Shown here: one piece after another, positions 41,234 through 62,830 of the stretch | Layout: the number at the start of each line of letters is the position of its first letter | Numbering within the stretch: the first letter of the stretch is position 1 | NCBI GenBank assembly: GCA_963730185.1 | Contig: CAVSQW010000012.1 | Location: 256,001-320,000, forward strand | DNA length: 64,000 nt | Source: an uncultured Gemmatimonadales bacterium | Lineage (GTDB): Bacteria; Gemmatimonadota; Gemmatimonadetes; Gemmatimonadales; GWC2-71-9 | Direction of reading: 5' to 3' | Notes under the pieces: model-generated | What the model was told of the DNA's origin: nothing | Database searches by the model: none | Seen by the model: only the letters and a program-made list of their open reading frames with translations | Program-made: the position numbers and the translations under genes

Positions 41234-41247
41234 GGGTTCCCTCTCCG

Positions 41248-41265: not shown

Positions 41266-41304
41266 GTTTTACCGACTTTACCCGACATCCGGGCGAGATC
41301 GGTG

Positions 41305-41640: not shown

Positions 41641-41647
41641 GACAACC

Positions 41648-43172: not shown

Positions 43173-43499
43173 ATGCCGACCCCGGTCTTTCTCGGCGAAT
43201 TCGAACAGTTCGTCCTCCTCGCCCTGCTCCGACTCGGCGACCGCCCCACCGCCATCGAGATCCGGGCCGAGCTCTCCGCGATCGCCGGCCGCCCGGTCGC
43301 GCGGGGAGCGCTCTACCGTACCCTCGACCGACTCGAAGCGAAGGGCTATGTCCGCTGGCGGATCGAGCCGGGCGACGCCAACCGGGCGGGGCAGCCGAAG
43401 CGGCGGTTCGAGGCGACGCCCCTGGCGGTCGGGACGCTGAAGGCGGCCCGCCGCACGCTCGAGGGACTCTGGGCCAGCGTGGAAGGGGTGCTCGGATGA
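43173..43499 (+). CDS. PadR family regulator
   Basis: LGEFEQFVLLALLRL, GALYRTLDRLEAKG and PKRRFE motifs. Confidence 0.9.
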   Translation: MPTPVFLGEFEQFVLLALLRLGDRPTAIEIRAELSAIAGRPVARGALYRTLDRLEAKGYVRWRIEPGDANRAGQPKRRFEATPLAVGTLKAARRTLEGLWASVEGVLG

Positions 43500-46102: not shown

Positions 46103-46933
46103 TCAGAAGGTCGCGATCAGGGTGGCGGCGGTCTCGGGCCGTCGGGCCGGGTCGGCGTCCAGAGCCCGGGTTACGAAATCCTCCAACGCCCGGGAGCCGG
46201 TCCAACGACGGGCCGCGAGCGGCACGGCCGGCTCCCCGGCGACGATCCGGGCCCGGTAGGCCGCGTCGGACTCGCCGGGGCCGAGGTCGTGAGGCAGGTG
46301 CCCCGTAAGGAGCTCGTACAGCGTGGCGCCGAGACCGTACAGGTCCACCGCCGGGGAAGCATCGATCGGGGCCGCCAGCAGCTCCGGCGCGGCGTAGCCC
46401 AACGTTCCCACCGCTTCCTCGACCCAGCCCAACGGCAGGCCCCGCGGGGGGTGCCCGGTCGCGGCCACCCCCAGGTCCGCCAGCCGGACCGATCCGTCGT
46501 CCATCACCAGGACGTTACTCGGCTTGACGTCCCGGTGAAGCACGCCATGCTCGTGGAGCCAGGACAGAGCCTCACTCAGCTGTTTCGCGATGGCGGTCAC
46601 CGCGGGCTCGGGGAGCGGCACCGCCGCCGCGTCGCGCCCCCGGGGGTGGAGCCGATCGCGGAGACTGCCGCCGCCGGCCCATTCCAGGACCGTGAGCGGC
46701 GGTTCGTCGACGGCGTCGAAGCAGCGAATCAGGGAATGCGACCCGCCCAGCCGGGTCAGGAGCTCGCGCTCCAGCCTGAAGCGGAAGACGGCTTCGGGGG
46801 CGTCGTCGCGGGGGTGGAACCGCTTGAGCGCTACGCGCCCGCCGTTCGGCGCGAGGGCGTCCCAGACTTCGGTCGTGCCGCGTCCGGAATCGAGCCGGCG
46901 GCGGAGCGTGTAGCCGGCGGTCGAGCCGGACAC
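46103..46933 (-). CDS. Hanks-type Ser/Thr protein kinase (catalytic domain only)
   Basis: VALK, HRDVKPSN, DLG, GTLGYAAPE and DLYGLG motifs; last gene of the T6SS-like operon. Confidence 0.92.
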   Translation of the reverse strand: MSGSTAGYTLRRRLDSGRGTTEVWDALAPNGGRVALKRFHPRDDAPEAVFRFRLERELLTRLGGSHSLIRCFDAVDEPPLTVLEWAGGGSLRDRLHPRGRDAAAVPLPEPAVTAIAKQLSEALSWLHEHGVLHRDVKPSNVLVMDDGSVRLADLGVAATGHPPRGLPLGWVEEAVGTLGYAAPELLAAPIDASPAVDLYGLGATLYELLTGHLPHDLGPGESDAAYRARIVAGEPAVPLAARRWTGSRALEDFVTRALDADPARRPETAATLIATF

Positions 46934-46943
46934 CAGGATCCGT

Positions 46944-48098
46944 TCAGGTGTGGAGGAACTTGAGCCGGGACACCTCGGCGACGGTGATCTCGTCGCCGTC
47001 GTCGAGCCGGTAGTGCTCGCCCCGCTTGACCGGCTTGCCGTTCAGCGCGGTGCCGTTCATGCTTGCGTCGACCAGGTAGTAGTCCCCTTCCTTGCGGAGC
47101 AGGGTGCAGTGGAAGCGCGACACGAGCGCGCCCGAGTCGCTCACCACCAGGTCGTTCTTCTCGTCCTCACCCGGCCCCTGCGCCGCGCCGATCTTGAAGA
47201 CGCCCTTCTCGCGGTCGATCGTCACCAGCTTGCCCCGGCCGATGCCGTCGACGATCTGGAGCACGGCGGCCCGCTTGGCGGCCAGCTCGTCGGCCTTGCG
47301 CTGGCGCTCCTCGCGGTACTTGGCGCCCCAGCGCACCACGAGCACCAGCCCCGCCGCCAGGATGATCAGCACCGGCACGATGTAGAGCGCCTGGCGCTTG
47401 AGGTCGTCCATCCGCTTCGAGCGCTGGAGCTCGGACATGAGGCTCTTGGCCTCGGGATGGTTGGGATCCTGCTGAAGGACGGCGCCGAGGTGCTGCTCGG
47501 CGCTGGCCCAGTTCTTCGCGTTGATGTCGGCCCGGGCGGCACCGAGATGCGAGCGCACCACCTCGGTGGACTGCTGATCCGCCTTGCCGGCCTCGAGCGC
47601 CCTCGATCGGGCGGTCTGGAGGTCGTTCTGGGCCTGCTGGAGCCGCTGCTGGGCGACCTGGTTCTGGGGGTCGCGGAACACCACCTGGAGCCAGCGTTGG
47701 ATCCGCTCGTTGATGTGGGCGGTGGTGGTGTCGTCGGCGACGTCGGCGGCGATGGCCTGCTGGATGGCCTGGTCGAGCGCGGCTTTCTCCTCCGGCGAGA
47801 GCGTCCCGGCCGCGGCAGCGCTGGGCATAATCTGGGCCGGTGGCGCCTGCAGCTTGAGCGCCGGGGCGGCCGAGTCGGCCTGCTTGGCGCCCGAGTCGGC
47901 CTTGGGGCCGGCGGTCGGGGCCTGGACCGCGGGCGAGGCGCCGGGCGCCGGCGCCTCGGCCGGCGGCTTCTGAGCGGCCGCCGGCTCCTTCTTCTTCTTC
48001 TTGAAGAACGGCAGCGGGATCTGGGCGCTGGCCTCGGGGGCCAGGGCCAGCGCGAGCACCAGGCCCAGGAGCGTTGCCCGTTTGGTCGTGGTGGTCAT
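46944..48098 (-). CDS. Membrane-spanning protein: signal peptide, Ala/Pro linker, TPR-like periplasmic region, TM, cytoplasmic FHA
   Basis: MTTTTKRATLLGLVLALALAPEASAQ; VLQQDPNHPEAK TPR-like; TM ALYIVPVLIILAAGLVLVV; FHA VSRFH...SMNGT...LDDGDEI; ATGA overlap with the Clp gene. Confidence 0.8.
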   Translation of the reverse strand: MTTTTKRATLLGLVLALALAPEASAQIPLPFFKKKKKEPAAAQKPPAEAPAPGASPAVQAPTAGPKADSGAKQADSAAPALKLQAPPAQIMPSAAAAGTLSPEEKAALDQAIQQAIAADVADDTTTAHINERIQRWLQVVFRDPQNQVAQQRLQQAQNDLQTARSRALEAGKADQQSTEVVRSHLGAARADINAKNWASAEQHLGAVLQQDPNHPEAKSLMSELQRSKRMDDLKRQALYIVPVLIILAAGLVLVVRWGAKYREERQRKADELAAKRAAVLQIVDGIGRGKLVTIDREKGVFKIGAAQGPGEDEKNDLVVSDSGALVSRFHCTLLRKEGDYYLVDASMNGTALNGKPVKRGEHYRLDDGDEITVAEVSRLKFLHT

Positions 48099-50848
48099 GA
48101 GACCCCCTCCGGCTGACCTCCCTCGGCGGCGCCGGCAGCCGCGCCGGTGGCGGCGTCGGCAGCCGCGCCGGTGGCGGCGTCGGCAGCCGCGCCGGTGGCA
48201 GCGTCGGCGGCTGCCGCCGCTTCCGCCGCCGCCGCTTCACGCTCGGCTTTGAGGCGCGCGGCCTCGTCCTCGACTTCCTTCGGCTCGCCGGCCAGGAGCG
48301 CGATCTCCTCGCCGTCCGGCACCACGCGGACCGCCATGCCGGGCCCCACGTCGCCCGCGATGATGAGTCGCGAGAGCGGGCTCAGGATGTGGCGATCGAT
48401 GGTCCGCTCCACCGGCCGGGCACCATAGACCGGATCGTAGGCCAGCCGGGCCAGGAGCGCCACGGCCTCGTCGTCGGCGTCGAGGGTCGCCTTGTGCTGA
48501 TCGAACAGCTGCCCGGCCAGGCTCTTGAGGTGCATCCGGACGATGACCTCCAGGGTGTCCTGCCCGAGCTCGTTGAACGGGATGACGCCGGACAGCCGGT
48601 TGAAGAGCTCGGGGCGGAGCGAGTCCTGCACCACCTTGAGGATGATCTCCTTCCGCTGCTCCGCGTCCTGGGCGACCGCGTTGGCTTCCTTCACGCCGAG
48701 GTTCGAGGTCAGCAGCACGATGGTGTTGGTGAAGTCGCAGAACCGGCCCTTGGCGTCGGTCAGTCGGCCTTCGTCCAGCACGCCGAGCAGGATGTCGATC
48801 ACCTCGGGATGGCCCTTTTCGATCTCGTCGAAGAGCACCACCGAGTAGGGCGAGCGGCGGACCTGTTCGGTCAGGAAACCGCCCTGCTCCGAGCCCACCA
48901 ACCCTGGCCGGGAGCCGATCAGGCCCGACACCGACCCGGAGTCCTTGTACTCCGCCATGTCGATCCGGATCAGGGCGCTCTCGTCGTCGAACAGCGCTTC
49001 GGCCAGGCCTTTGGCCAGCTCCGTCTTACCGACGCCGGTCGGGCCCACGAACAGAAACGAGGCGGGCTTCCGCTTCTTCCGGAGGTCGGTCCGCATCCGG
49101 CGGGCCGCTTCGGCCAGCGCGTCGACGGCGTCCTGCTGGCCGATCACCCGATCGGCGAGGCGTTCCTCGAGCTTGAGAAGCCGCTCGCGTTCGCTCTCCA
49201 TCATCCGCGAGATGGGGATCCCCGCCCGTCGCGCCACCACGTCGGCGATGTCGGTGGGACGCACCTCCTGGGGCACGAGGGGTCCGGCCTCGTTGACCTT
49301 GGCCTGGCGCTTCTCGAGGTCGGCCTCCTGCTCCTTGAGGAACTTGAGCGCGCCGTAGCGGATCTCGGCCGCGGCCGCCACGTCGCCGGAGGCCTCGGCC
49401 TGGGCCAGCTCGGCGTCTTTCTCCTGGATGGCTTTCCGGGTCTCCGCGAGGCCGGTGGTGACCGCCCGCTCTTCGTTCCACCGTTCCAGGATGCCGGCCA
49501 GCTCCGACTCGGCCGCCTTGACCTCTGTGGCCACGGCCTTGGGGTCGCCCTCGCCGCCGCCCTTGATCGCCTCGAGCCTGGCTTTGAGCCGGACCAGGGC
49601 CCGTTCCTTCTCGTCGATCAGGTTGGGCTTGGACTCGAGCTGCATCCGGAGCCGGGCGGCGGCCTCGTCGAGGATGTCGAACGCCTTGTCCGGGAAGAAG
49701 CGGTCGCGGAGGTGGCGGCGGGCCAACTTGACGGTGGCCTGGAGCGCGTCCTCGGTGATCCGAACCCCGTGGTGGGTCTCGTACTTGCTCTTGACGCCCC
49801 GGAGCATGGCCAGGGTCATCTCATCGTCGGGCTCCTCGACCACGATCCGCTCGAAGCGGCGGGCCAGGGCGCCGTCCTTCTCGATCGACTCGCGATACTC
49901 GTCGAAGGTCGAGGCCCCGACGCACTTGATCTCGCCCCGGGAGAGGGCCGGCTTGAGGATGTTGGCGGCGTCCATCCCGCCGGCGTTGCCGCCGGCGCCG
50001 ACCAGCGTGTGGATCTCGTCGAGGAAGAGGATCACGTCGGGCTGATCCTTCACCTCGTCGGCCACCGCCTTGATCCGCTCCTCGAATTCGCCCCGGTACT
50101 TGGCGCCGGCCACGAGGCCGGTCAGGTCCAGGGCGAGGAGGCGCGCGGCCCGGAGCGACTCCGGCACGTCGCCGGCCACGATCCGGAGCGCCAGGGCCTC
50201 GACCACCGCGGTCTTGCCGGTGCCGGGGTCGCCCACCAGCACCGGGTTACTCTTGGTCCGCCGAAGCAGGGTCTGTACGACTGAGCGGATCTCGATGTCA
50301 CGCCCGATCACCGGCATCAGCTTGCCGTCACGCGCCGCCTGGGTCAGGTCGCGGGTGAATCGCTCGAGGGTGCTGCCGCCTTCGCCGGGCTGCTCCTCGG
50401 TGGGCTGCATCACCTCGGGCGAGTCGAGCGCGGCGCCGAGGCGGTCGGCGGCCCAACCGCTGTCGCGGAGCGCGGGACCGAGGTCTCCCTGATCCGACCC
50501 GAGCGCGGCGAGGGCGACTTCGATGGGGCCGATGGTGTGGCCGCCGCGCTGGTCGGCCTGGGCGGTGGCCCGGTCGAGCAGGTCGCGGAGAGTCCGGCCG
50601 GCCACCGGCTGGCGGCCCGGCTCGAGCTTGACCGAGTCGGGCCCATCGGGCAGCGACTCGACCCGCCGAGCGGTGGCCGCCGCGTCGACCCCGAGCTTCC
50701 CGGCCAGCCGGCCGAGACCGCCCTTGGGATCGAGGAGGGCCAGCAGCAGGTGCTTGGCCTGGATGAAGGCGGCGCCCTGGCGGGCGGCGAGCCGCCGCGA
50801 TTCCTCCAGGGCCGCCGTCAGATCCATCGAAAGTCGGTTCAAATCCAT
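48095..50848 (-). CDS. tssH: Hsp100/Clp AAA+ ATPase in the T6SS operon (TssH position, ClpB-like architecture)
   Basis: Clp N-domain; GDPGTGKT / LFLDEIH; GPTGVGKT / LFDEIEK; coiled-coil middle domain; located between tssK and the FHA gene. Confidence 0.85.
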   Translation of the reverse strand: MDLNRLSMDLTAALEESRRLAARQGAAFIQAKHLLLALLDPKGGLGRLAGKLGVDAAATARRVESLPDGPDSVKLEPGRQPVAGRTLRDLLDRATAQADQRGGHTIGPIEVALAALGSDQGDLGPALRDSGWAADRLGAALDSPEVMQPTEEQPGEGGSTLERFTRDLTQAARDGKLMPVIGRDIEIRSVVQTLLRRTKSNPVLVGDPGTGKTAVVEALALRIVAGDVPESLRAARLLALDLTGLVAGAKYRGEFEERIKAVADEVKDQPDVILFLDEIHTLVGAGGNAGGMDAANILKPALSRGEIKCVGASTFDEYRESIEKDGALARRFERIVVEEPDDEMTLAMLRGVKSKYETHHGVRITEDALQATVKLARRHLRDRFFPDKAFDILDEAAARLRMQLESKPNLIDEKERALVRLKARLEAIKGGGEGDPKAVATEVKAAESELAGILERWNEERAVTTGLAETRKAIQEKDAELAQAEASGDVAAAAEIRYGALKFLKEQEADLEKRQAKVNEAGPLVPQEVRPTDIADVVARRAGIPISRMMESERERLLKLEERLADRVIGQQDAVDALAEAARRMRTDLRKKRKPASFLFVGPTGVGKTELAKGLAEALFDDESALIRIDMAEYKDSGSVSGLIGSRPGLVGSEQGGFLTEQVRRSPYSVVLFDEIEKGHPEVIDILLGVLDEGRLTDAKGRFCDFTNTIVLLTSNLGVKEANAVAQDAEQRKEIILKVVQDSLRPELFNRLSGVIPFNELGQDTLEVIVRMHLKSLAGQLFDQHKATLDADDEAVALLARLAYDPVYGARPVERTIDRHILSPLSRLIIAGDVGPGMAVRVVPDGEEIALLAGEPKEVEDEAARLKAEREAAAAEAAAAADAATGAAADAATGAAADAATGAAAGAAEGGQPEGVS
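48133..48204. repeat. 3 x 24-bp in-frame tandem repeat (DAATGAAA) in the Clp ATPase tail
   Basis: CGGCAGCCGCGCCGGTGGC(G/A)GCGT at 48133, 48157 and 48181. Confidence 0.9.
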
Positions 50849-50862
50849 GGAGTGGTCCCTGC

Positions 50863-52497
50863 TCAGGGTTGCCCGCCGCGGCCGGGACGACGGAGCGTGA
50901 TCTTGGGCGTCGTGGGCTGCGGGGTCTGGGGCGGCGGTGGCGGCGGCGCGGGTGCGGGCCGAGGCGGGGCGGCACCGGCGGCCGACGGCGCCATGCCCGC
51001 CATGCCGAGCCGGCGGCGGAACAGCACCGCGCCGCGGAGGCTGTGGCCCGGCTGCACCGTCACCGTCAGTCCGTTGATCGTCGCGACGTCTTCGGGAGTA
51101 TCGAAGTTCATCGCGAAGTTCCGTTGACTCTCGAGCTCGCAGATGACGGTCCGGGTAATCGGCGAGCGGTGACCGCCGGCCGCGTTGACCCGGACGGTCA
51201 CGCTCAGCTCCTGCCCCGGCGCCCACTGGTAGCTCGACCGCGGGTCGCCGGTCAGCACGATCCGATACTCGTGCTTCCCGGCGAGGTCGAGCTGGCTGAA
51301 GACGAAGGTCAGGAGGTCGCCCTCGCGCTGCGGATGCGACGGCGAGGTGACCGCTTCGTAGAAGTGCTCGCCGTCGCGATCGAGCAGGAACTTGATCGAT
51401 TCGATGGCCCGGTTGATCCGGTAGTCGACGTACTTGCCGGCCAGCGCGTCGACCAGGTGGCGGAGCCGGGAGAGCGTCTCCGTCGCGCGGACCACCAGCG
51501 GGCGGAGCTCTTCCCGCCGATCGAGCTCCCGCTGGGTGGCCAGCACCCCGCGCTCGGCCTCGAGCAGCTCGGAATAGCTGGTGTCGACCTGGCTCAGGTC
51601 CTTGAAGAACTGGCGGCTCGACGACGAGAGCTCGAGGGCCAACGCCACCGTCCGCCCGGCCCGTTCGAGCTGTTGGAAGAACCGGTGCGGCGGCATCGCC
51701 AGGTCGGCCGTCTCGTAAGCGCACTGCTCGAGCGCCATGACCGCCCGCTCCACGAAGGCGCCGATGTCGACGTCGCTCCGAACGTCGACGCCCCGGGCCG
51801 CCACCTTCTCGGCGTAGCGGGCGGCGCTCCGGTGGATCTCCTGGTACTCGCCGACCAGGAGCCGGGCCTCCGATTGGAGCCGGGTGGCGGCGGTGTAGAG
51901 GGCGGTATGGGCCAGGAGCGAGGCGCAGGGCGGGATGTACTGCCCGTCGAGCTCGAAGCCGAGCGTCTCCGAGGCCCGGCGAAGCTTCCCCACCACCATC
52001 GACGACGACGCCAGCTCGGCCGGGAGGCCGAGGCGGACTTCGTACTTGGCCCGGCTGAGGGCGGCCTGGTTGGGATTCGAGGGATCGAGTCCCACCGAGG
52101 CCGGATCGTTCTCGCGCTCGCCGCTCCGGACCACGTACACCAGGGCATCGGTCACCCCGGCCAGGTCGCTCTTTCGCCAGTCGCCCTGCACCACCCGCGA
52201 CTCGTCGATCTCCACCAGCTCGCCGCCGGGGGTCACCCCGCGGGCCCGGAGGACCGAGACCCGGATCCGATCGGCCTCGTTCAGGACCTCGACCTTGGGG
52301 TCGTACTTGGCCAGGCCCTGCTCCACCGTCTCGAGCCGGACCCCACCGCCGACCAAGCCGGTGCCCGGGAGACAGTACTTGAGCAGCCAGGCAACCTGCT
52401 CTTCGACGTATCGGTCCTGACGCATGAAATGCTGCGGCGCGAGCAGCATTCCGGTGGTCCAGTTCACCGACTTGAAATAGTCGTCCCGTTGGGTCAC
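50863..52497 (-). CDS. tssK: T6SS baseplate TssK-like protein with C-terminal extension
   Basis: N-terminal SVNWTTGMLLAPQHFMRQDRY and YIPPC, typical of TssK; Pro-rich tail; GTG coupled to the tssG stop. Confidence 0.75.
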   Translation of the reverse strand: MTQRDDYFKSVNWTTGMLLAPQHFMRQDRYVEEQVAWLLKYCLPGTGLVGGGVRLETVEQGLAKYDPKVEVLNEADRIRVSVLRARGVTPGGELVEIDESRVVQGDWRKSDLAGVTDALVYVVRSGERENDPASVGLDPSNPNQAALSRAKYEVRLGLPAELASSSMVVGKLRRASETLGFELDGQYIPPCASLLAHTALYTAATRLQSEARLLVGEYQEIHRSAARYAEKVAARGVDVRSDVDIGAFVERAVMALEQCAYETADLAMPPHRFFQQLERAGRTVALALELSSSSRQFFKDLSQVDTSYSELLEAERGVLATQRELDRREELRPLVVRATETLSRLRHLVDALAGKYVDYRINRAIESIKFLLDRDGEHFYEAVTSPSHPQREGDLLTFVFSQLDLAGKHEYRIVLTGDPRSSYQWAPGQELSVTVRVNAAGGHRSPITRTVICELESQRNFAMNFDTPEDVATINGLTVTVQPGHSLRGAVLFRRRLGMAGMAPSAAGAAPPRPAPAPPPPPPQTPQPTTPKITLRRPGRGGQP

Positions 52498-53402
52498 GCA
52501 GCACTCCTTGGCTCGGGACTGCCGAGATAGCTGTTCAGGCCCAGGGCGGCCTCATGCTCCGGATCGCCGAGCACGGCCGCCTCCGAGCGATTGCCGACGA
52601 TCCACCGCTCCGTCACGGTGGCGCGGAGATGCACCGGCAGCACCAGGCGGTAGATCGCGTCGCGCTGGCTCCGCTCGTCGGGCCGCTGCATCCGCCGGTA
52701 GGTCTCGAGGTCGACCGGGCCGATGTCGATCTCCACCGAGGTGCTGGCGGTGACGCCGTCGCCCACGATCGCGTCGATGCCCAGCCGGCCGTTCCGCCGG
52801 CCCAGCCGGGTCCGCCGCCCGGCCGAGACCGGGGCGATCCCGGAGACCAGCCGGACCGGGGATGCCGGCAGCCGGAATACCGAACGTAAGGCAATCGCCG
52901 GGCCGTCGGGACGGCCCGCGATCCGGGCCAGGGACGGCAGGAGCCGGGCCACGTCGTACCACCGCTCCCGGGGCCAGGGCGCGGCCGACAGTCGGAATAT
53001 CTCGGTGATCCAGCGGTTGGCGCCATCGGGGTCGTCGGGGTGGAGGTCGAGCAGCCCCCCCGCGGCCCGCAAATGGAGCTGGAGCTTGAGAAAATGGGTG
53101 TCGAAGAGGCCGAACAGCCGGTCGCTCCGGAATTCGCCCTCGGCGCTGTCGCGCATCGGGTAGGGCAGACTGTCGATCGCGCCCGAGCCGGCCACGGTCA
53201 GCACCACTCGGGTCTCCAGGGCGAGCTCGGTGCCGGCCGCCGGCGACTGCGACACCACCGTGCCCGGAGCCCAGCCCGGCCCCGCACTGTGCAAGGTGAT
53301 CCGATCGAGATCGACGCCCATCCGGAGCAGCGCCGGCACGGCGGAATCCACGGTGTGGCGGGCGCCGCGCCGGGGGGTGACCAGGTCGGGCATCGCGCTC
53401 AC
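52494..53402 (-). CDS. tssG: T6SS baseplate TssG-like protein with N-terminal PASTA-like domain
   Basis: Position after tssF; LFGLFDTHF, TRLGRRNGRLG...IVG and VEIDIGPVD..Y TssG-like motifs; ALGLNSYLG. Confidence 0.7.
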   Translation of the reverse strand: MSAMPDLVTPRRGARHTVDSAVPALLRMGVDLDRITLHSAGPGWAPGTVVSQSPAAGTELALETRVVLTVAGSGAIDSLPYPMRDSAEGEFRSDRLFGLFDTHFLKLQLHLRAAGGLLDLHPDDPDGANRWITEIFRLSAAPWPRERWYDVARLLPSLARIAGRPDGPAIALRSVFRLPASPVRLVSGIAPVSAGRRTRLGRRNGRLGIDAIVGDGVTASTSVEIDIGPVDLETYRRMQRPDERSQRDAIYRLVLPVHLRATVTERWIVGNRSEAAVLGDPEHEAALGLNSYLGSPEPRSAA

Positions 53403-55138: not shown

Positions 55139-55141
55139 GGA

Positions 55142-56992
55142 TCAGCCCTGCCTCGGGGTATCGGGATCCGCGGTTCGGGTGGCCACGGCGTCTTCCGGCG
55201 TCGTCCGCGTACCCAGGTCGGTCGAGTCGACCTTGACCTGATTGGTCGGCACCGGCTTGCCGGCGAACCCGGGCGGCTGCACGTGCACCATCCCGCCCAC
55301 GATCGCGTTCAGGGCGCCGGCCACCGACTCGACGTTCATGTTCCCCTTCAGCGCCACGTTCATGCCGTTGAGCGTCGCGTCGCGACCGGCCTTGAGGGTC
55401 AGGGCGCCGGTGACCTCGAGGTAGTCGTCGCCGCTCACCTTCTTGAGCGACGGGCCCGACACGACCTGGGTGAAGCTCTTCGACTTCATCCTGAGCTCGC
55501 CCTCGGCCTCGAGGGCGATGTCGCCCCCGGACTTGATCGTGATCACCGGGGTGTCGCCGTTGGTCAGCTGCACCATGCACTTGCCTTCGGGCGTGAAGAC
55601 CTCGATGGTCTCCGCCCCGTCGTCGTCGAGCAGCTGGATGGTGTTGCCGCTCCGGGTAATGATCCGCTTGGCGGTATTCCCCGAGGTCGGCTCCGGCGCC
55701 TGGTCGAGACCGTTCCAGAGCCCCCCCACCACCACCGGGAACTCGGGATCGCCGGCCAGGAAGACCACCAGCACCTCATCGCCGATTTCGGGGATGAACA
55801 TCATGCCCCGTCCGTTCCCGGTGTGCGGAGTGGCCAGCCGAGCCCAGTAGGACTGCTCGTCGCCGCCGCTCCACCGATACTGCACCCGGACCCGACCCAT
55901 CTTCGACGGGTCCTCGTTGTCGATCACCTCGGCCGCGATCGGCCCCGCGATGGCGACCCGGGCCGGGGCCTGATAGCTGGTGAACGTCTTCCAGGGCGTG
56001 GCCTCGAACCGGTTGAGGTACTGCTGGTCCTTGAAGGTGTTCGTGATCCGGGTGATCCCCAGCTTGCCGGTGGTGGCCAGCTGGAAGTCCTTCCCCTCGA
56101 TCAGGTTCACCAGATCGCCCGCCTGGAGGCCGGGCTTGCCGGACACGCACTCGACCCGGAGCGCTCCGCCCATCGCCCGCTCGCTCTCCTGTCGGAGCTT
56201 GGCCTTGAACTCAGCGTGGTCGGTGGACACCGCGAACGGCTCCGCCAGGATCGGGTCGCCGCCCCCGGCATACCCTCGGGCCAGGTCATTGACCGTGGCG
56301 ACCAGCTTGGCCGCCCCACCCAGGGTTGCCGGGTTGGACCGGATGCCGGCGTGGGCGTGGGTCGACTTCTCCTTCAGGTCGTAGCTCGCGCCCGTCACGC
56401 CGTTGTTCACGGGCCGGGCCCGGGCTGTGACCTCGATGAGCGACTCACCCCAGATCAGATCCCAGCCCTTGTCGACGAACTCGTTCCGGATCTCGACCTG
56501 GGGACCCGATGTCACCAGAAAGCAGCCGGCCTCGTCGGCCAGGCGCTTCAAGAACTCGAACTCGGTCTCGCCCCACTGGACGAAGTCGAAGGGATCGGCG
56601 GCCGGGAGTTTGGCCACGACCTTGACGCCCAGCTTGGTGGCGACGTCGCCCAGCTTGGCGCGGGGGAAATGCCGGGTGTCCCGGAACTCGTGCCGGATCG
56701 AGGGCGAGACGCAGTCGAGCACGAACCGGGCGCCGAAATGGAGCAAGTGGCTCTGGGCCCCGTCGGCGACGACGCCCTGAAAGATCTCGAGCGGATCGGC
56801 CTCGTCCTCCTGCACGGTCACGCTGACCGGGGCCCGGAGCAGGTCCTCGAGGGCCACGGTTTGGGCCCGGTCGCGGGTGAACTCGATGGCGCAGCGGGTG
56901 TGCTCTCCGAGCTCCTGCACCACCTCGAGCGATTCCACTTCGCTGTTTCTGAGCACCAGGTCGCCGATGCTGACCCGGATGATGACTTTCAT
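55142..56992 (-). CDS. vgrG: VgrG/TssI spike protein
   Basis: VQWGETEFEFLKRLA (gp27-like); DNEDPSKMGRVRVQY, WARL..PHTGNGRGMMFIPEIGDEVLVVF (gp5 OB); C-terminal beta-helix repeats. Confidence 0.92.
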   Translation of the reverse strand: MKVIIRVSIGDLVLRNSEVESLEVVQELGEHTRCAIEFTRDRAQTVALEDLLRAPVSVTVQEDEADPLEIFQGVVADGAQSHLLHFGARFVLDCVSPSIRHEFRDTRHFPRAKLGDVATKLGVKVVAKLPAADPFDFVQWGETEFEFLKRLADEAGCFLVTSGPQVEIRNEFVDKGWDLIWGESLIEVTARARPVNNGVTGASYDLKEKSTHAHAGIRSNPATLGGAAKLVATVNDLARGYAGGGDPILAEPFAVSTDHAEFKAKLRQESERAMGGALRVECVSGKPGLQAGDLVNLIEGKDFQLATTGKLGITRITNTFKDQQYLNRFEATPWKTFTSYQAPARVAIAGPIAAEVIDNEDPSKMGRVRVQYRWSGGDEQSYWARLATPHTGNGRGMMFIPEIGDEVLVVFLAGDPEFPVVVGGLWNGLDQAPEPTSGNTAKRIITRSGNTIQLLDDDGAETIEVFTPEGKCMVQLTNGDTPVITIKSGGDIALEAEGELRMKSKSFTQVVSGPSLKKVSGDDYLEVTGALTLKAGRDATLNGMNVALKGNMNVESVAGALNAIVGGMVHVQPPGFAGKPVPTNQVKVDSTDLGTRTTPEDAVATRTADPDTPRQG

Positions 56993-57017
56993 TGCGGTCC
57001 TCCCTGGGGCCTGGGGC

Positions 57018-57377
57018 CTAGCCCGCGGCCATTTCCCCGAACAGGGCCTTGCCTTCGGGTGACTCTATCGTCAACCGGAAGGCGCGCCGGCCGTCGACGC
57101 CGAAGGTCCCGGTGGTGATCGACTGGACCCGATACCCTGCCACGCCCAGGTTGCCGAGGGCCGCGTTGATGGCGTCCTGCAACCCTTCGTGATCGGTCCG
57201 ATCGCGACGGGCCGCTTCGGTGAAGGCCTCGAGCAGCCCGAACCAGGGCGCGTGGGGCCAGGCCCGACTCGACGTGCCGGCCATCACCTGAACGAGACCC
57301 AGTATCGCGTCGAAGCCCTCCTGCTCGACGAAACGTCCCTGAGGGGTGATCCGGAGCGGAAGGGCTATCGATCGCAT
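57018..57377 (-). CDS. tssE: gp25-like baseplate protein TssE
   Basis: IALPL...AILGLVQVMAGTSSRAWPHAPWFGL resembles the gp25 T..GE...P.FG motif; position between the tube gene and vgrG. Confidence 0.65.
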   Translation of the reverse strand: MRSIALPLRITPQGRFVEQEGFDAILGLVQVMAGTSSRAWPHAPWFGLLEAFTEAARRDRTDHEGLQDAINAALGNLGVAGYRVQSITTGTFGVDGRRAFRLTIESPEGKALFGEMAAG

Positions 57378-57386
57378 GATCGGGCC

Positions 57387-57420
57387 GGGTGGGGCGGTCG
57401 GTCCAGCGGACCGACCACCC
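57387..57420 (-). terminator. GC-rich stem-loop between tssD and tssE (no U-tract; attenuator or RNA stabiliser)
   Basis: GGTCGGTCC-AGC-GGACCGACC perfect 9-bp stem (57396-57416), extendable with GGGT/ACCC. Confidence 0.55.
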
Positions 57421-57431
57421 GTCGACGGCGC

Positions 57432-57872
57432 TTACTTCGTGAACTTGTGCTTCGAGACGTTCGACTCGTCGACCGCCACCACCAGCTCGAGCTTGAGCAG
57501 GTTCTTGAAGCCGATCTGTGAGGTCGAAACGGTCTCGGTCGCGATCACCGGGTTCCCCACCTCGAAGTGGGAGATCCAGCCCATGAACTCGACCGCGTGC
57601 AGCACCTTGTCGGCTTCGTCCATATAGTAGGTGATCTCGCACTTGTGGAGCGGATCCTTGCTCTCGGTCGCGATCTTCCACAGCTCGATCTGCTGCGACG
57701 GCGAGAGGTTGTCGATCACGCTCGCGTCCATCCAGATGTCCACCCGACCGACCATCGAGTCGCCGATCCGGCGACCGACCTGGTTGGCGTTCCGGGCGAT
57801 CCGGTAGGTGGCCTGAACGGGTCGGAACTCGATGCTATCGATCTTGACCTTGACGCGGTTGTACGTGGCCAT
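57432..57872 (-). CDS. tssD: Tail-tube protein TssD (Hcp-equivalent, Bacteroidota T6SSiii-like)
   Basis: 146 aa beta-rich; Y.I.R..NQVGR......G.V.I and ITYY.DEADKVL..VEF pattern recalls TssD of subtype iii; RBS GGAGAG. Confidence 0.7.
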   Translation of the reverse strand: MATYNRVKVKIDSIEFRPVQATYRIARNANQVGRRIGDSMVGRVDIWMDASVIDNLSPSQQIELWKIATESKDPLHKCEITYYMDEADKVLHAVEFMGWISHFEVGNPVIATETVSTSQIGFKNLLKLELVVAVDESNVSKHKFTK

Positions 57873-57912
57873 GGTTCTCTCCAGTAAGGGTTGCGGCTCA
57901 AGCGCCGGGGGT

Positions 57913-58299
57913 TCAGAGGCCGAACAACTTCTTCATCCTCCCTAAGAGCGACGCGGGGGCGTCACTTTCCCTCATGCCGGGGTCGGGGACGGATGGGGCG
58001 GCTGCCTCGGCCGCCGGCGAGGCCGGAGCCTCGACGGACGGACTCGCGGCCTCAGCCCTGGGCGCGGGCCGGAATTCGAATTCGGGATCGCGCTCGGTGC
58101 GCGCCTGGTGGCGCGACGAGAAGTTGAGCACCGACATCCGGGTCTTGTCGCCCCGGGCCAAGTGGCCCGAGCCGTCCATCCGACGCTCGACCCGGATGTT
58201 GCCGCGCTCTTGCTTGGTGTACCGGAGGTCGGGCTTCCGGGTTCCGTCGGGGTTCGCCAACGGGTCGGGCGCCTCGGCCTCCTGGTCGTCAGCCGACAT
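57913..58299 (-). CDS. Hypothetical protein between sheath and tube genes, with C-terminal amphipathic helix
   Basis: RBS GAGGT before the ATG; Ala/Pro-rich linker; ends SLLGRMKKLFGL. Confidence 0.7.
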   Translation of the reverse strand: MSADDQEAEAPDPLANPDGTRKPDLRYTKQERGNIRVERRMDGSGHLARGDKTRMSVLNFSSRHQARTERDPEFEFRPAPRAEAASPSVEAPASPAAEAAAPSVPDPGMRESDAPASLLGRMKKLFGL

Positions 58300-58317
58300 G
58301 GATTACCTCGCTTATCG

Positions 58318-59664
58318 TCAGCCTTCGGCGCCCTTCTTGAAGTCCGGGGTATCGATCTTGAGCTCGAAGGTTTCCGCCGGTCCGACGGGCAGCACCTCGA
58401 GATTGATGTCGAGTACCCCCTGGGCGAACTTGTCCTCGTCCATGTCGATGTCGAGCGAATACTTGTAGATCGTCCCGCCCTTGAGCTCGTCTTCCAGGAA
58501 CTCCTCGATCGGGTTCCGGACCTGCTCCTTCACCAGATCGCGGGTCAGCCGCTGCTCCGCCACCCGGCGGAGGTAGACGGAGATTCGCCGCTCCAGGTAG
58601 CGAAGGACCCGGTACGACGTAAAGAACTTGAGCACCCCCTTGGGGTCCTCGGCCTGGGTCCGGCTCCCGACGAAACAGAGCTGGTTCGAGTCGTCGCGGA
58701 TCATGCAGAGCACCTGCCGCTCCATGGTCAGGTGCTCCATCTGGGAGATCCGGGGCTCGATCCGGGACTTCTCCACCCCGCGGATCTGCCCGAAGATCAT
58801 CCCGACCGGGCCTTGAGCGATCCCGCCGCCGGTGGTCCGGTCGGTCCGGGCCAGACAGCCGGCGAAGAGCAGCGAGGCCGGCGAATAGAGATCGGGGTCG
58901 TCGACGTCGCCGTCGGCCTTCTCGAACCAGTGGCGGTCGCGGAGCTTCACGGTCCCGGCGATCACCACGTCGGCGGCCGCCTTGTCCTCGGGGCGCTTCA
59001 GGAACTCGTAGGCGCCGCCGTCGGTCCGGAACTGGTCGGAGAGCTGCTTGAAGTTCTTCTCGTCCTTGAGGTCGCCGATCAGCAGCATGCCCCACTGGCT
59101 GGCAATGTCCTCGAGCCGCTTCCGGACGTTGTCGGGTACATAACCCGGCAAAACCAGGTTGCAGATGAACTGCCGGAAGTTGAAGGTGTCGTTCCGGCTC
59201 TGAATGAACTCGTCCAGCGCCTCGATGGTGGAGCTGTTGACGTCGCTGGTGATGACCTTGGTATCGGCGTTGAAGATGTAGAACTCCACCGGCGGCCGTT
59301 GCTGCGAGTCGCGGACCTCGGCGTTCTCGAAGAAGAGCTGGAGCTGCCGGTAGCTCCGCTCGATCGGCCGGATCTTCTCGTAGATCTGGGCCAGCACGTC
59401 ATCGCGGAGCGCCTCCATCGAGGCGATCTGCTCGTCGAGCTTCTTCAAGGCCTGTTCGTAGCTGTCCTTGGTGGAGAGCAGGCTGGAGAAGTCGGCGACC
59501 CGCTTGAGGAACTGGCCGGCGCTCTCGGCGGTGAAGATGTCCTTGAGCGCGGTCTTGGCCGGCGCGGGGTGAATGACGTTGAAGATCTCCTCGATCGCCT
59601 TCCCGGCCGCGCGCTTGCCGATGATGTCCTGCGCGCTCTTGACCATCACTTTCTCGTCGCTCAC
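58318..59664 (-). CDS. tssC: Contractile sheath large subunit TssC (DUF5458/T6SSiii-like)
   Basis: 448 aa; RPIERSYRQLQLFFEN, IFNA, LVLPGY, MLLIGD and VLPVGPAETF..KI motifs; GTGA overlap with tssB. Confidence 0.8.
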   Translation of the reverse strand: MSDEKVMVKSAQDIIGKRAAGKAIEEIFNVIHPAPAKTALKDIFTAESAGQFLKRVADFSSLLSTKDSYEQALKKLDEQIASMEALRDDVLAQIYEKIRPIERSYRQLQLFFENAEVRDSQQRPPVEFYIFNADTKVITSDVNSSTIEALDEFIQSRNDTFNFRQFICNLVLPGYVPDNVRKRLEDIASQWGMLLIGDLKDEKNFKQLSDQFRTDGGAYEFLKRPEDKAAADVVIAGTVKLRDRHWFEKADGDVDDPDLYSPASLLFAGCLARTDRTTGGGIAQGPVGMIFGQIRGVEKSRIEPRISQMEHLTMERQVLCMIRDDSNQLCFVGSRTQAEDPKGVLKFFTSYRVLRYLERRISVYLRRVAEQRLTRDLVKEQVRNPIEEFLEDELKGGTIYKYSLDIDMDEDKFAQGVLDINLEVLPVGPAETFELKIDTPDFKKGAEG

Positions 59665-60131
59665 GCCTCACCTCCCGACAGCCGCTTGAGCGCGTCCTGG
59701 AACTCGCCCAGAGCCTCGATGATCTCTTTCCGCTGATCGTCGTTCTCCCAAGCCCGCCGCACCGCGAGCACCGAGAACCGCTCCCGCATCCGGTGCAGGA
59801 GATCGATCTGGCTCTGGAGATCGGCCAGGTCGTTCCGCTTGCCCGGGGTCCGGGAGCCGATCTTCTTGGGATCGAAGTCCTTGAGGCTGTTGAACTCGAG
59901 ATCGGCGACGAACTCGGTGCCCTCTTCCCCGACGGTCGTCTTGAAGTCGAGGGCGGGCTTGAACTTGTCGAAGGCCTCCTGGAGGTCGGAGACCTTGGTC
60001 GGGCCCTCATCCTCGGGGCATTCCTCTCCCACCCGCTCGACGGTCATCGGCATGACGGTCGCCGTGGTTTCGGTGGGAACCTGACGGGGCGCCTGTTTGA
60101 CGCCGGCACGGGTGACTTTGACGACTGGCAT
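59661..60131 (-). CDS. tssB: Contractile sheath small subunit TssB (T6SSiii-like)
   Basis: 156 aa; EAFDKFKP, LEFNSLKDFDPK and ENDDQRKEIIEAL motifs; directly upstream of tssC. Confidence 0.8.
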   Translation of the reverse strand: MPVVKVTRAGVKQAPRQVPTETTATVMPMTVERVGEECPEDEGPTKVSDLQEAFDKFKPALDFKTTVGEEGTEFVADLEFNSLKDFDPKKIGSRTPGKRNDLADLQSQIDLLHRMRERFSVLAVRRAWENDDQRKEIIEALGEFQDALKRLSGGEA

Positions 60132-60182
60132 GGGATTCCGGTCTCCGGGAGCGAGCGACGACGGTTCGGGATGCCGACCGCG

Positions 60183-60211
60183 AAAATATCAGCGACAGGG
60201 GGTCGCTCGAA
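60183..60211 (-). promoter_or_regulatory. Candidate sigma70 promoter for tssB with palindrome in the spacer
   Basis: Minus strand reads TTCGAG-17 nt-TATTTT with extended TG; AGCGAC-N5-GTCGCT at 60191-60207. Confidence 0.4.
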
Positions 60212-60377
60212 CGGCGGCATCGAGTCTGACAACGGTGAGCGGGACCTGCCAGTTAGATACCTTCGATCTGCCTGTCCCGCAAGGCGTTGGAGGGTCGGGA
60301 GGGCCCCGCCGCCCACCCGTTCGACCCCAACGCCAATCTCCAATCCCTAGGGAAGCGACGATGCCGCCGCGGGTCCC

Positions 60378-61694
60378 TCACCCCGCCCGCGCCTTGGCCG
60401 CCGTCACGTCCGCCGGCTTCCTGGGCGCCGCCTCCTTGAGGTCGGTCCGGAGCCCGCCGGCCAGCTTGGCCTTCTTCTTGGGCGCCGCGGCCGTCGCCGC
60501 GCCGGCCGGCAGGATCCGGGGCCAGAGCAGCCGGGGCAGCACCAGCCAGAGCAGGGCCAGCAGGATCAGCACGAATAGCGCCAACGGAATCCGGCGGTCG
60601 ATCACCTCCGACCCACCGAGCTGATTGGAAATCCCCGCCGGGATGACCCCCGGCGACACCACCCCCGAGAAAGCCGGCAACGCCATCACCGGTGGCCGCC
60701 AGACGGCCACCCCAGTGGCGGCTGCCGCGCCCCCGCCCAAGGCAAGGCTGGTCCCGATCGCCGTCCACCCTCGCCCAAGCTCCTCCCGCCCCCCGCTCGG
60801 CACGGGGAACGCCAGCTCCCAGGTCGACGAAAGCAGGTTCCGGATGTCGTCCAGCGGCCGGGCCAGCTCGAAGGCGTCGATCGGGACCACGTAGCTCCGA
60901 CCGCGGGGGCCCGCAAGCGCCTGGAGCGCTCGCGGGTCGACCCCACCGCCCAGCCCGATCACCGCCGTCACCAGACCCGAGTTGGCCACGGCCCGGGCCG
61001 CCGTCTGGAGCCCGGCCGCGCCGGTCAGGAGCCCGGAGTCGTCGCCCGGATGGTCCACATCGTTGTTGCCGTCGGTCAGCACCACCAGGACACCCAGGGC
61101 GTCCGCCCCGGCCTGCGCCAGCTCGGTCTTGAGCCGCTCGGTCCCCAGGTCGATCGCGCTGTAGAGGCCGGTGTTCTCCCGGTCGGGCGTGGGAAGGGCC
61201 TCCACCTGATCGATCGCCTGCGCCGGCGGGACGAACCGGGCGCTCCGGATCCGGCCGGCCACGTCCACGCTCCCGAACGGGGCGACCGCCACCTGGATGG
61301 CGCCGTCGGCCATCGATTCCAGGGAGCGAAGGAGGTTGTCCTTGAGGACGATCTTGGCGGTCCCGATCCCCAGGTTCCGCATGCTGCCGCTCACGTCCAC
61401 CAGCATCAGGATCCGCGCCGGCCGGCTCCGGACTCCCGGAAGCCGCCGGGCGAAGGCGACGATCCCGTCGTCACCCCGGAACCGGATCCGCCAGGCCGAG
61501 TCGACCGCGGCCGCTGGCGCGGTGGCAATCCGCCGGGCGGCGTCGACGGTGACGTCGATGGTGGTGGTGAGACAGGCCTGGTTGGTGTTGTCGGCACAGC
61601 GCACCAGCAGCGCGTCGGGCAGCTGAGCCTGGCCCGGCGCCGCCATCCCCGCCAGCAGGGCAACGAGCCCGAAGGCACTCCGGCGCTCGCTCAC
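60378..61694 (-). CDS. Membrane-anchored VWA (MIDAS) domain protein
   Basis: Signal peptide; LVDVSGSM, TGLYSAI and VLTDG form a complete MIDAS; C-terminal TM and Lys-rich tail; GTGA overlap with the upstream gene. Confidence 0.88.
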   Translation of the reverse strand: MSERRSAFGLVALLAGMAAPGQAQLPDALLVRCADNTNQACLTTTIDVTVDAARRIATAPAAAVDSAWRIRFRGDDGIVAFARRLPGVRSRPARILMLVDVSGSMRNLGIGTAKIVLKDNLLRSLESMADGAIQVAVAPFGSVDVAGRIRSARFVPPAQAIDQVEALPTPDRENTGLYSAIDLGTERLKTELAQAGADALGVLVVLTDGNNDVDHPGDDSGLLTGAAGLQTAARAVANSGLVTAVIGLGGGVDPRALQALAGPRGRSYVVPIDAFELARPLDDIRNLLSSTWELAFPVPSGGREELGRGWTAIGTSLALGGGAAAATGVAVWRPPVMALPAFSGVVSPGVIPAGISNQLGGSEVIDRRIPLALFVLILLALLWLVLPRLLWPRILPAGAATAAAPKKKAKLAGGLRTDLKEAAPRKPADVTAAKARAG

Positions 61695-62830
61695 AGGGAC
61701 GCCTCCGGGAACCGGCGGAACCGGAACTGGTGCTCGCCCAGGACCACCACGTCATCGTTCAGGAGATCGGTCGGTCCGGTGATCGGCTGGGCGGCGAGCA
61801 CGGCGCGCTCTCCCCCCTGACCCGTCGGAGCGATGGCCAGCCGGCCCCGCTGCGCTCGCACCTGGAACCGCCGTCCGAAGGCGTTGGCCACGTCGTCGAG
61901 CACCTCCCACTCCCGGTGGCGGATGAGCCCGACCGAGCCGCCGCTCACGGTCTCGAGCTCGACCACCCCCAACGCCCGGGCCGGCCGGCTCAGCCCGTAG
62001 CCCAACCCCGAGCCCACCAGCACGAAGGCGATCAGTTGCCAGAGGTCGGTCGGGCCCGGGAGCGACATGATCAGGCCGCCGAGCGCCCCGGCGCCCAGGC
62101 CGAACAGGAGCCCGTCGAGCAGCCGGCCTCGGTCACGACCGAACCAACGGGCCCCCAACACGAGGCCGCCCAGACCGCCCGACAGGCCCCACACCAGCAG
62201 CCGGGCCACGATGAACCCTTGACGGGAGCTGCCGAGACCCCCCAACCCGGCGACCAGCAGCCCGAGCAGGGCGCCCACCGTGGTCCCGACCACCCCGAGC
62301 ACCAGCCCGATCGCCACCGCCGCCACCGCCGCTTCGTTCCGCCGGAGCGCCGCGAAGCCGAGGATCGCCGCTCCAACGAAGGCGCCGAGAATCGCGGCCA
62401 CCGTCAGGTCGAGGGTGCCGTAGCTCACCAGCACGGTCCCCAAATCGGTGAAGAGCGACCCGACCAGCCAGGCGACGGCGCCGCCCGACAGCCCGGCCAC
62501 CAGACCGATGTACGCCCCCTTGGGTAGGAACGGTTTGGCCGGCGGCTCCGGCCGGGCCGTCTTCGGACCGGTCCGCCGCTGCATCCGGAGCTCGATCGAG
62601 TAGAGCGGGGCGATCCGGAGGGTCTCGGGCGGCTGCTGGAGATCGAGGGAGCGGCCGTTCCAGGCCACGAACAGCTCGTCCTCGGGCCCTCCCTTGAGCA
62701 TGATCCCCCGCTGGCGGAGCTCTTCCAGGACGTGGCGGAGCTGGGGGCCGAGCGGCCGGTCGTCGTCCAGCGTGAAGGGCACCCGCTCCAACCCGCGCTC
62801 GGTGACGAGATCGATGTTGTAGGTCGGCAT
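61691..62830 (-). CDS. Ubiquitin-like (YukD/EsaB-type) + multi-TM + degenerate FHA-like membrane protein
   Basis: N-terminal beta-grasp-like pattern (YNIDLV/VPFTL/helix/LFVAWNGRSLD/IELRM); about 6 Gly-rich TM helices; C-terminal LLNDDVVVLGEHQFRF. Confidence 0.6.
   Translation of the reverse strand: MPTYNIDLVTERGLERVPFTLDDDRPLGPQLRHVLEELRQRGIMLKGGPEDELFVAWNGRSLDLQQPPETLRIAPLYSIELRMQRRTGPKTARPEPPAKPFLPKGAYIGLVAGLSGGAVAWLVGSLFTDLGTVLVSYGTLDLTVAAILGAFVGAAILGFAALRRNEAAVAAVAIGLVLGVVGTTVGALLGLLVAGLGGLGSSRQGFIVARLLVWGLSGGLGGLVLGARWFGRDRGRLLDGLLFGLGAGALGGLIMSLPGPTDLWQLIAFVLVGSGLGYGLSRPARALGVVELETVSGGSVGLIRHREWEVLDDVANAFGRRFQVRAQRGRLAIAPTGQGGERAVLAAQPITGPTDLLNDDVVVLGEHQFRFRRFPEASL

Follow-up and report, generated by a model that had tools for sequence, protein, structure and literature searches.

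A contractile secretion system of Gemmatimonadota and Acidobacteriota, related to type VI subtype iii, that probably has an inner-membrane anchor of its own and possibly a link to bacterial ubiquitination

The question raised by the locus described here is how a contractile tail could be held in the cell envelope when none of the membrane components of the known type VI secretion systems (T6SS) is recognised beside it. Such a tail is encoded at positions 46103..62830 of the stretch of DNA analysed (the window, 64,000 nucleotides, G000:C12:256001-320000), which belongs to the genome, G000, of an uncultured Gemmatimonadales bacterium. The original prediction, made from the letters alone, had listed 14 co-oriented genes; all are read from the minus strand in the order claimed, and the five overlaps of 4 bp are true (61691/61694, 59661/59664, 53399/53402, 52494/52497 and 48095/48098). 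The cluster probably encodes a cell-anchored contractile injection system, that is, a T6SS, of a lineage allied to the subtype iii of Bacteroidota (T6SSiii) and with its own inner-membrane anchor. This lineage related to subtype iii is real, conserved and apparently undescribed, and it is possibly switched by bacterial ubiquitination. The supposition that the host stands outside Bacteroidota proved right, the named near relatives of its TssC being mostly Gemmatimonadales and the carriers chiefly Gemmatimonadota and Acidobacteriota. The GC content at third codon positions is 0.83-0.95 in 13 genes of the cluster, and the overall GC of the cluster, 0.65-0.74, is near the genome's own value, so that there is no obvious sign of a recent import.

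By homology, the cassette is predicted to supply a TssD tube, a VgrG-PAAR spike, a TssB/TssC sheath, a baseplate of TssF, TssG and TssK (TssE being assigned weakly) and a dedicated Clp ATPase for recycling. The small sheath subunit TssB (59661..60131) matches PF05591 with 25 bits against a cut-off of 24. The large subunit TssC (58318..59664) belongs to the T6SSiii family PF17541 (DUF5458; E 1e-21, 77.8 bits against a cut-off of 25), shows 20-25% identity to the TssC of Bacteroidota plasmids and gave no match with the VipB family PF05943; the pyocin sheath 3j9q was matched by the TssC profile at E 1.9e-4. The TssD/Hcp tube protein (57432..57872) has no match in Pfam, and the best matches of its profile are the Bacteroidales TssD 7YW0 (E 5e-4) and 9QWL (E 6e-4), with the Capnocytophaga TssD reached at E 5.6e-8. 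The VgrG spike gene (55142..56992; PF04717 E 2e-26, PF05954) is the sole full-length copy in G000, and the baseplate wedge TssF (53399..55138) gives 43.9 bits on the Capnocytophaga TssF, E 9e-11 on TIGR02243 and no profile match with the TssF of T6SSi. These calls had been made in the original prediction and were upheld, as were those of TssG and TssK; VgrG, TssG, TssK, the VWA, FHA and TPR domains and the kinase all exceed the cut-offs of Pfam. The call of TssE (57018..57377) is left on position and size, with a weak profile match (E 0.007) to one of four Bacteroidota GPW/gp25 proteins and nothing matched in Pfam or PDB, the family being found in 69 of the best 80 of 97 loci.

TssG (52494..53402; PF06996 E 2e-10) carries an N-terminal PASTA domain (PF03793 E 6e-6), and a PASTA-like motif occurs in 40 of 54 members; the domain is kept in both phyla, which is surprising for a cytoplasmic baseplate protein. 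TssK (50863..52497) was recognised by Foldseek on the TssK of enteroaggregative Escherichia coli (E 4.5e-11). Residues 5-350 of its model, corresponding to shoulder and neck, match TssK (VIA Z 16.5, root-mean-square deviation (rmsd) 4.3, 281 aligned). The head (about 381-498) is apparently a different beta-sandwich, for which a VIA run on the whole model, not on the head alone, gave alignments solely with unrelated sandwich folds (Z about 8); a head without a match is expected if TssK docks on another platform. The dedicated Clp AAA+ ATPase in the TssH role (48095..50848; 917 aa, start 50848) gives 915 bits on ClpB and 696 bits on ClpV1, both under cut-off. It forms a clade with its own kind (SH-aLRT, the Shimodaira-Hasegawa-like approximate likelihood ratio test, 100; 10 rows) separate from housekeeping ClpB, and its second pore loop reads PGL[VI]G in 10/10 dedicated Clps in place of the canonical PGYVG of ClpB.

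The affinity of the tail was assessed with query profiles built from the new loci, four Bacteroidota plasmid loci and one locus of subtype i (T6SSi) being used as references. The profiles of TssB (31 vs 16 bits, the four Bacteroidota TssB spanning 20-31 and T6SSi giving 15.7), TssK (43 vs 25 bits) and VgrG (223 vs 155 bits) scored higher on Bacteroidota than on T6SSi, and those of TssC (96 bits), TssD (25 bits) and TssF (44 bits) matched Bacteroidota and none of T6SSi. The likeness to subtype iii over VipA, VipB and Hcp that had been noticed for four proteins is borne out for TssB, TssC and TssD, and comes down to the weak match for TssE. Two TssC trees, one of 76 rows (in which 28 of the 55 Bacteroidota-like sequences and 6 of the 12 from T6SSi were kept) and one of 28 rows, were computed in quick mode with LG+G4 and no mixture model; they gave long-branch warnings and contained no sequences of T6SSii, T6SSiv or extracellular contractile injection systems (eCIS). 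In the 28-row tree ten members of the new family form a clade (SH-aLRT 99, stem 0.79) and all four named Bacteroidota TssC fall in another (SH-aLRT 95); the 76-row tree shows the same picture (92 and 94). As judged from these trees, TssC is a distinct clade inside the subtype iii superfamily, and the data fit a sister or a nested placement.

Known anchor genes were then sought in the genomes of carriers. TssM was found in none of nine (G000, G005, G006, G011, G015, G041, G042, G043 and G045), TssL and TssA in none of four (G000, G041, G042 and G043) and TssJ in none of five, the E. coli control being positive in each search. At the level of sequence, TssN was likewise missing from nine carriers and TssR and TssO from four, with a Capnocytophaga plasmid (W01) as positive control; tblastn of the Capnocytophaga and Bernardetia TssP and TssQ proteins on G000 returned nothing at E 0.01. 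G041-G043 are single-chromosome records. The earlier statement that TssJLM and TssNOPQR are missing therefore stands on controlled searches for TssJ, TssL, TssM, TssN, TssO and TssR, and on tblastn alone for TssP and TssQ. TssA, which had not been recognised before either, was absent from the four carriers searched; this is not unusual, because T6SSiii is normally without TssA (PMC13584744). Matches to TssL, TssM and TssA came solely from G044 (Granulicella mallensis X5P3), where they belong to a distinct T6SSi locus, on a different contig (G044:C9; L118, L119), with VipB, TssA, TssL, TssM, ClpV and two TssK, so that two unrelated T6SSs coexist in this strain. The new system is, by sequence comparison, outside both subtype i and subtype iii on its membrane complex, and the proposal of a distinct T6SS lineage with another anchor was upheld by the genome-wide TssJLM and TssN/O/R searches and by the TssC trees.

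Three membrane proteins that travel with the tail genes are the likely anchor. The first (61691..62830) is a predicted inner-membrane protein and candidate baseplate dock, with an N-terminal ubiquitin-like (Ubl) domain (1-87), six transmembrane (TM) helices (104-281) and an FHA domain (286-374), an arrangement that had been called from the letters and with which the AlphaFold (AF2) model agrees (pLDDT, the predicted local distance difference test score, 92.7). In the VIA comparison the first row for this model is EccD5 7b9f (Z 10.8, rmsd 23.6, 208 aligned), and the Ubl of EccD5, 7b7j, follows with Z 10.6, rmsd 2.2 and 83 aligned; rows for FHA and Ub/SUMO domains score within 1 Z of EccD5, which amounts to a tie. 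At an rmsd of 23.6 for the whole protein, it is therefore the domains alone that match. The second protein (60378..61694), a candidate periplasmic anchor part, consists of a signal peptide, a VWA domain (PF00092 E 7e-10) and a TM helix; the canonical DxSxS motif of the metal-ion-dependent adhesion site (MIDAS) is present in 59 of 66 members. The third (46944..48098) has a signal peptide, TPR repeats (TPR_19), a TM helix and an FHA domain (E 1e-14), and carries extra domains resembling 3-keto-disaccharide hydrolases in Acidobacteriota. A Ser/Thr kinase (46103..46933; PF00069 E 6e-37) closes the cluster, and in Granulicella mallensis a PP2C gene stands after the FHA gene.

Where a locus reaches 8 kb or more upstream, the TM-FHA and the VWA gene are present in 18/23 and 19/23 cases in Gemmatimonadota and in 23/24 and 23/24 in Acidobacteriota. 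TM-FHA was found elsewhere in the genome in all 12 genomes whose fetched locus was without it (owing to inserted cargo or a contig end). The Ubl-TM-FHA protein is present in all seven TssC carriers among 251 Gemmatimonadota genomes, with one further partial match (G452). The candidate anchor does share some traits with that of T6SSiii, because TssN is described as EccD-like, with TM helices and a ubiquitin-like domain through which it is proposed to dock the baseplate, and a vWA domain is reported for TssR (PMC10781749). No hhalign match was obtained between Ubl-TM-FHA, or its Ubl, and TssN, at low power (three TssN sequences), nor between VWA-TM and the one TssR sequence used, and a search of the PDB by sequence gave no TssN structure.

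The distribution of the system was examined by a TssC scan with one genome per species, in which the best 80 of 97 loci were kept: 43 from Gemmatimonadota, 33 from Acidobacteriota and four labelled otherwise, possibly through mis-binning. Throughout these loci the order of the cassette is maintained across the two phyla. The prevalence is about 3% of the genomes sampled (7 of 251 in Gemmatimonadota, 6 of 201 in Acidobacteriota), and 11 of 21 genomes of the host genus carry the system; the cultured carriers are Granulicella mallensis X5P3, Granulicella sp. S156 and Terriglobus sp. 2YAB30_2. The T6SSi marker VipB was found in 24 of the 251 Gemmatimonadota genomes and the new system in seven others, with no overlap. 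Downstream genes were counted where the locus reaches 9.5 kb or more in that direction, which is so for 25 loci of Gemmatimonadota and 26 of Acidobacteriota. In the respective phyla tssD and tssE are present in 25/25 and 26/26, tssK in 23/25 and 25/26, and clp in 22/25 and 24/26, which makes 46 of 51 long loci with a dedicated Clp. Within the span vgrG occurs in 25/25 Gemmatimonadota loci and in 4/26 of Acidobacteriota, where it is often further on or apart.

The Ubl domain led to a second component of the system. In Acidobacteriota, genes for an E1, a membrane RING-like protein, a free Ubl and an E2 lie beside the TM-FHA gene and mostly run divergently from the tail genes. The E1 (ThiF E 1e-24) has the canonical GxGxxG motif and a conserved Cys; the RING-like protein has four TM helices and 16 invariant Cys in 9/9 members, its Prok-RING match (E 0.01-0.017) lying under cut-off; the Ubl has 86 aa and ends in Gly in 80/80 (the best 80 of 168 metagenome loci); and the HPN-type motif and Cys of the E2 are invariant in 11/11. 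When presence of the enzymes was counted by six-frame translation in the 24 long Acidobacteriota loci, E1 was found in 20, RING in 22, Ubl in 21 and E2 in 21, and none of the four was found in any of 23 Gemmatimonadota loci; E2 was absent from nine Gemmatimonadota carriers as well, with G044 as positive control. The profile of the free Ubl gives a single match on G000, residues 1-67 of the window protein (E 5.5e-8), and a joint profile matches ubiquitin, SUMO and ISG15. The Ubl is fused in 26/26 Gemmatimonadota TM-FHA genes, 31 genes from outside Gemmatimonadota are unfused and one acidobacterial gene (Blastocatellia) is fused. Among 201 Acidobacteriota genomes TssC and free Ubl occur in the identical six, all with E2 at E 6e-42 or better, and four further genomes have weak E2 matches alone; in one genome, G089, the E1-RING-Ubl-E2 operon lies on another contig than the tail genes. 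A search centred on the Ubl (again the best 80 of 168 loci) gave 31 loci with at least 6 kb upstream, and these hold E1 and RING in 31/31, TM-FHA or VWA in 27/31, tail genes in 25/31 and neither in 4/31.

On the simplest reading of this pattern, Ubl and TM-FHA would work together as a single unit that Acidobacteriota assemble with enzymes and Gemmatimonadota obtain by gene fusion. It is conceivable, at a little under even chances, that Acidobacteriota attach the free Ubl to TM-FHA or to another anchor part by means of the E1, the E2 and a membrane RING E3. It is tempting to go further and to speculate that this is a fifth T6SS subtype with a third independent anchor, whose assembly would be switched in Acidobacteriota by the E1-E2-RING Ubl cascade, through attachment of a baseplate-docking Ubl to the membrane protein, and hard-wired in Gemmatimonadota by the fusion; we put this forward tentatively. 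The Ub operons of Acidobacteria are probably not new in themselves, having been noted as sporadic and uncharacterised in PMC4197634. In the ESM Atlas a Planctomycetota FHA cluster, 11% of it with E2 (UQ_con) and scored 0.80, offers a lead for FHA-E2 links outside these phyla.

The alternative that survives best concerns the Ubl module alone: E1, RING, Ubl and E2 could serve stress responses or defence against phage as a conjugation system of their own that is merely a neighbour of the T6SS, with conjugation playing no role in secretion and the fused Ubl acting as a scaffold domain of the YukD and EccD sort. Such a role would suit the sporadic, uncharacterised occurrence of the acidobacterial operons (PMC4197634), the anti-phage action of Bil and CBASS conjugation (PMC11601603), the finding that YukD is not conjugated (PMC1779556), the four of 31 long Ubl loci without a T6SS gene within 8 kb and the usually divergent orientation of the operon; against it stand the perfect overlap of TssC and Ubl carriers (6 and 6 of 201 genomes, G089 included), the membership of free Ubl and fused domain in one family, the complementarity of fused and free forms between the phyla and the failure of PADLOC to match the Ubl, the E2 or the RING. 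We consider it a serious competitor that falls short of being probable.

Several observations weigh against an anchored lineage of its own, and against parts of the proposed cascade. The TssG profile is nearer T6SSi (34 bits) than T6SSiii (10-13 bits) and that of Clp is equidistant between the two; three PF17541-like proteins join the new TssC clade at SH-aLRT 92, and the approximately unbiased (AU) test allows all Bacteroidota-like TssC rows together (p 0.36). TssP and TssQ were probed solely by tblastn with one or two sequences, G000 is 82% complete, and the carrier genomes are kin, not independent, for which reason no statistic is offered for the co-occurrence. The operon lacks Clp in four loci, and genome G041 has no dedicated Clp (best 44% identity); recycling is therefore not universal. 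The FHA domains appear to be without the canonical Arg of the phosphothreonine pocket, and a regular-expression search of the Ubl operons brought up no JAB deubiquitinase (one JAMM-like motif in 160 loci). Finally, the cassette has no conserved lipoprotein or channel for the outer membrane: lipobox-like motifs are found in 2/66 VWA, 1/26 TPR-FHA and 0/59 Ubl-FHA proteins. In PMC10781749 such a component is regarded as central to the two membrane complexes known so far, and the passage of the tube through the outer membrane is the main gap in the anchor proposed here.

It is this gap that gives some room to a contractile system tethered to the inner membrane, with no T6SS-like piercing of the outer membrane, that would act in the envelope or be freed by lysis, like membrane-bound or extracellular contractile injection systems. 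The match of the TssF C-terminus with the baseplate model TIGR02243, the subgroup without Clp and the failure to recognise immunity genes in G000 would agree with it. We judge it improbable, since the split TssB/TssC sheath and TssK are, from what is known of these families, features of T6SS, a dedicated Clp accompanies nearly all of the long loci, and separate vgrG genes and hcp or vgrG beside muramidases are found as in T6SS cargo islands. Also improbable is a very diverged T6SSiii with a homologous anchor, in which Ubl-TM-FHA would be a rearranged TssN and VWA-TM a remnant of TssR; the EccD-like TM and Ubl build of TssN and the vWA of TssR (PMC10781749), the rank of EccD5 as first match of the model, the leaning of the tail genes towards subtype iii and the frequent failure to detect the divergent TssO, TssQ and TssR (PMC10781749) speak for it, but TssN begins with TM helices whereas the new protein starts with its Ubl and has an FHA in addition, VWA-TM carries its TM helix at the C-terminus and lacks a conserved lipobox, hhalign gave probabilities of 0.05-0.2% (at low power, with three TssN and one TssR), TssO and TssP were not found, and tssN of Bacteroidota adjoins tssK or tssG whereas the Ubl-TM-FHA gene precedes tssB.

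The anchored T6SS lineage is the preferred reading, and its working can be pictured as follows. TssK with its swapped head would dock on a platform of Ubl-6TM-FHA, VWA-TM and TPR-TM-FHA, and the kinase, PP2C and FHA domains would gate assembly; in Acidobacteriota, with less certainty, the E1, E2 and RING might couple the Ubl to the anchor post-translationally, the same product being encoded as a fusion in Gemmatimonadota. The far end of the sheath might be held by the amphipathic tail of orf5, and cargo linked to PAAR and DUF4123 would be delivered against other bacteria.

The orf5 protein (57913..58299) is of low complexity and ends in an amphipathic helix; its family was found in 32 loci, and orf5-like open reading frames (ORFs) occupy the same position in Acidobacteriota. 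The terminal motif occurs in 27/33 members against 33/4298 G000 proteins, the motif having been drawn after the sequences were seen. The hydrophobic moment in the best window has a median of 0.60 against 0.36, with 14/33 above the 95th percentile of the background; in a fixed window it does not discriminate (mean 0.50, which 15% of the background reaches), and the ESM Atlas gave no match. The protein may act as a membrane stop for the far end of the sheath.

That neither PAAR nor cargo lies between the ADOP and decarboxylase genes is true inside the window, and fails to hold for the locus as a whole, which extends past the span first described: a PAAR gene (G000:C12:330767-331687) and cargo-like genes lie about 11 kb beyond the window end, and PAAR was found in 5/5 carrier genomes. 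The accessory module (C12:320402-343126) comprises PAAR, a DUF4123 fragment, Ser/Thr kinases, Sel1 repeats, an M48 peptidase, two PG_binding_1 proteins, two OmpA-like proteins without signal peptide and unknown proteins of 505 and 873 aa, and adjoins the Ubl gene in G005, G006 and G011. Within it, at C12:322810-324731, a kinase-like/PEGA and a Sel1 part are two ORFs in G000 and one fused gene (about 620 aa) in relatives. Relatives have extra vgrG genes apart from the main locus, and muramidases (PF11860, E 2e-55 and 3e-45) lie near tssD or vgrG in two Acidobacteriota; no immunity gene was recognised in G000. The cargo linked to PAAR and DUF4123 and the acidobacterial muramidases point to other bacteria as the presumed target. 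In five Acidobacteriota loci (L120, L124, L131, L134 and L136) a short VgrG (about 520 aa) has as neighbour a gene for a protein with gp5 C-terminal repeats, which suggests a split spike carrying cargo.

On the other side, beyond the ADOP gene, the locus extends to an FHA-TM protein with a periplasmic domain (41854..43029, plus strand), which is part of the operon in relatives (L058, L059, L062 and L064) and has invariant His/Asp and HxH residues in 6/6. These residues resemble those of a zinc peptidoglycan peptidase, but for a likeness to peptidase M15/TagX no support came from Pfam or PDB. The same four loci, and G041, form a subgroup of altered order, with tssFGK first and the operon without clp. 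The left flank of the T6SS cluster holds a PadR/ADOP permease pair (43173-46096) and, at 38442-41652, a cluster judged by eye to resemble arsenic resistance (ArsR, methyltransferase, transporter). In some metagenomic proteins (P0121, P0125, P0131, P0133 and P0148), a few of them very diverged, TssB is apparently fused to TssC.

Comparison with known systems places the new one closest to T6SSiii (PMC10781749), with which it shares the PF17541 TssC, the nearest TssB, TssD, TssF, TssK and VgrG, the lack of TssA, a Clp ATPase and, among the membrane parts, a TM protein with Ubl and a vWA protein. It differs in its host phyla, in its separate TssC clade, in having no matches to the TssN, TssO and TssR families and no lipoprotein, in the FHA/kinase/PP2C module, in the PASTA domain of TssG, in the longer TssK with another head and in the link to E1, E2 and RING. 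With T6SSi it has in common the split sheath, the TssK fold, the similarity of TssG, PAAR, DUF4123 and the logic of kinase, PP2C and FHA, a threonine phosphorylation pathway (PpkA/PppA/Fha) being known there (PMC13584744); it has no TssJLM, no TssA and no VipB-type TssC. T6SSii is marked by an Igl/Pdp set, and T6SSiv and eCIS by a single-chain sheath with an Afp15-type ATPase and no TssK; the split sheath, the TssK fold and the Clp argue against membership of the latter two. EccD of the ESX system (type VII secretion, T7SSa) and YukD share the N-terminal Ubl on a multi-pass TM bundle and gave the best structural rows, whereas the new protein has six TM helices and an FHA, and the cassette has no ESX genes.

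The separate E1, the HPN-Cys E2, the Ubl with C-terminal Gly and the TM RING-like protein recall the Ubl/E1/E2/RING operons of the Caldiarchaeum type and the Bil and Bub systems. The latter are marked by a JAB peptidase (Bil, Bub I) or by DUF6527 together with enzyme fusions (Bub; PMC11601603), whereas the acidobacterial enzymes are separate, no recurrent JAMM-like motif was found by regular expression and no DUF6527 partner was seen, though no search aimed at DUF6527 was made; compared with known Ubl operons, the acidobacterial one is tied to a contractile secretion cassette and is replaced by a gene fusion in Gemmatimonadota. The plasmid T6SSs reported in Acidobacteria and Gemmatimonadetes in PMC9113992 are of subtype i4b. 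No description of the present system, or of a link between T6SS and ubiquitination, was met in the literature searched, most subscription papers lying outside that search, and survey tables of TXSScan might list these loci as incomplete matches.

The origin of the two unrelated T6SS membrane complexes was left open in 2024 (PMC10781749), and a tail akin to these, if it has a third anchor, is of direct relevance to how such complexes arose. The uncharacterised Ubl/E1/E2/RING operons (PMC4197634) gain a specific candidate substrate, and this, together with cultured soil hosts, makes the questions of the anchor and of ubiquitin testable. The system is present in two abundant soil phyla, both little studied, and, if the proposal is true, the eukaryote-like ubiquitin operons of bacteria would gain a physiological role outside phage defence.

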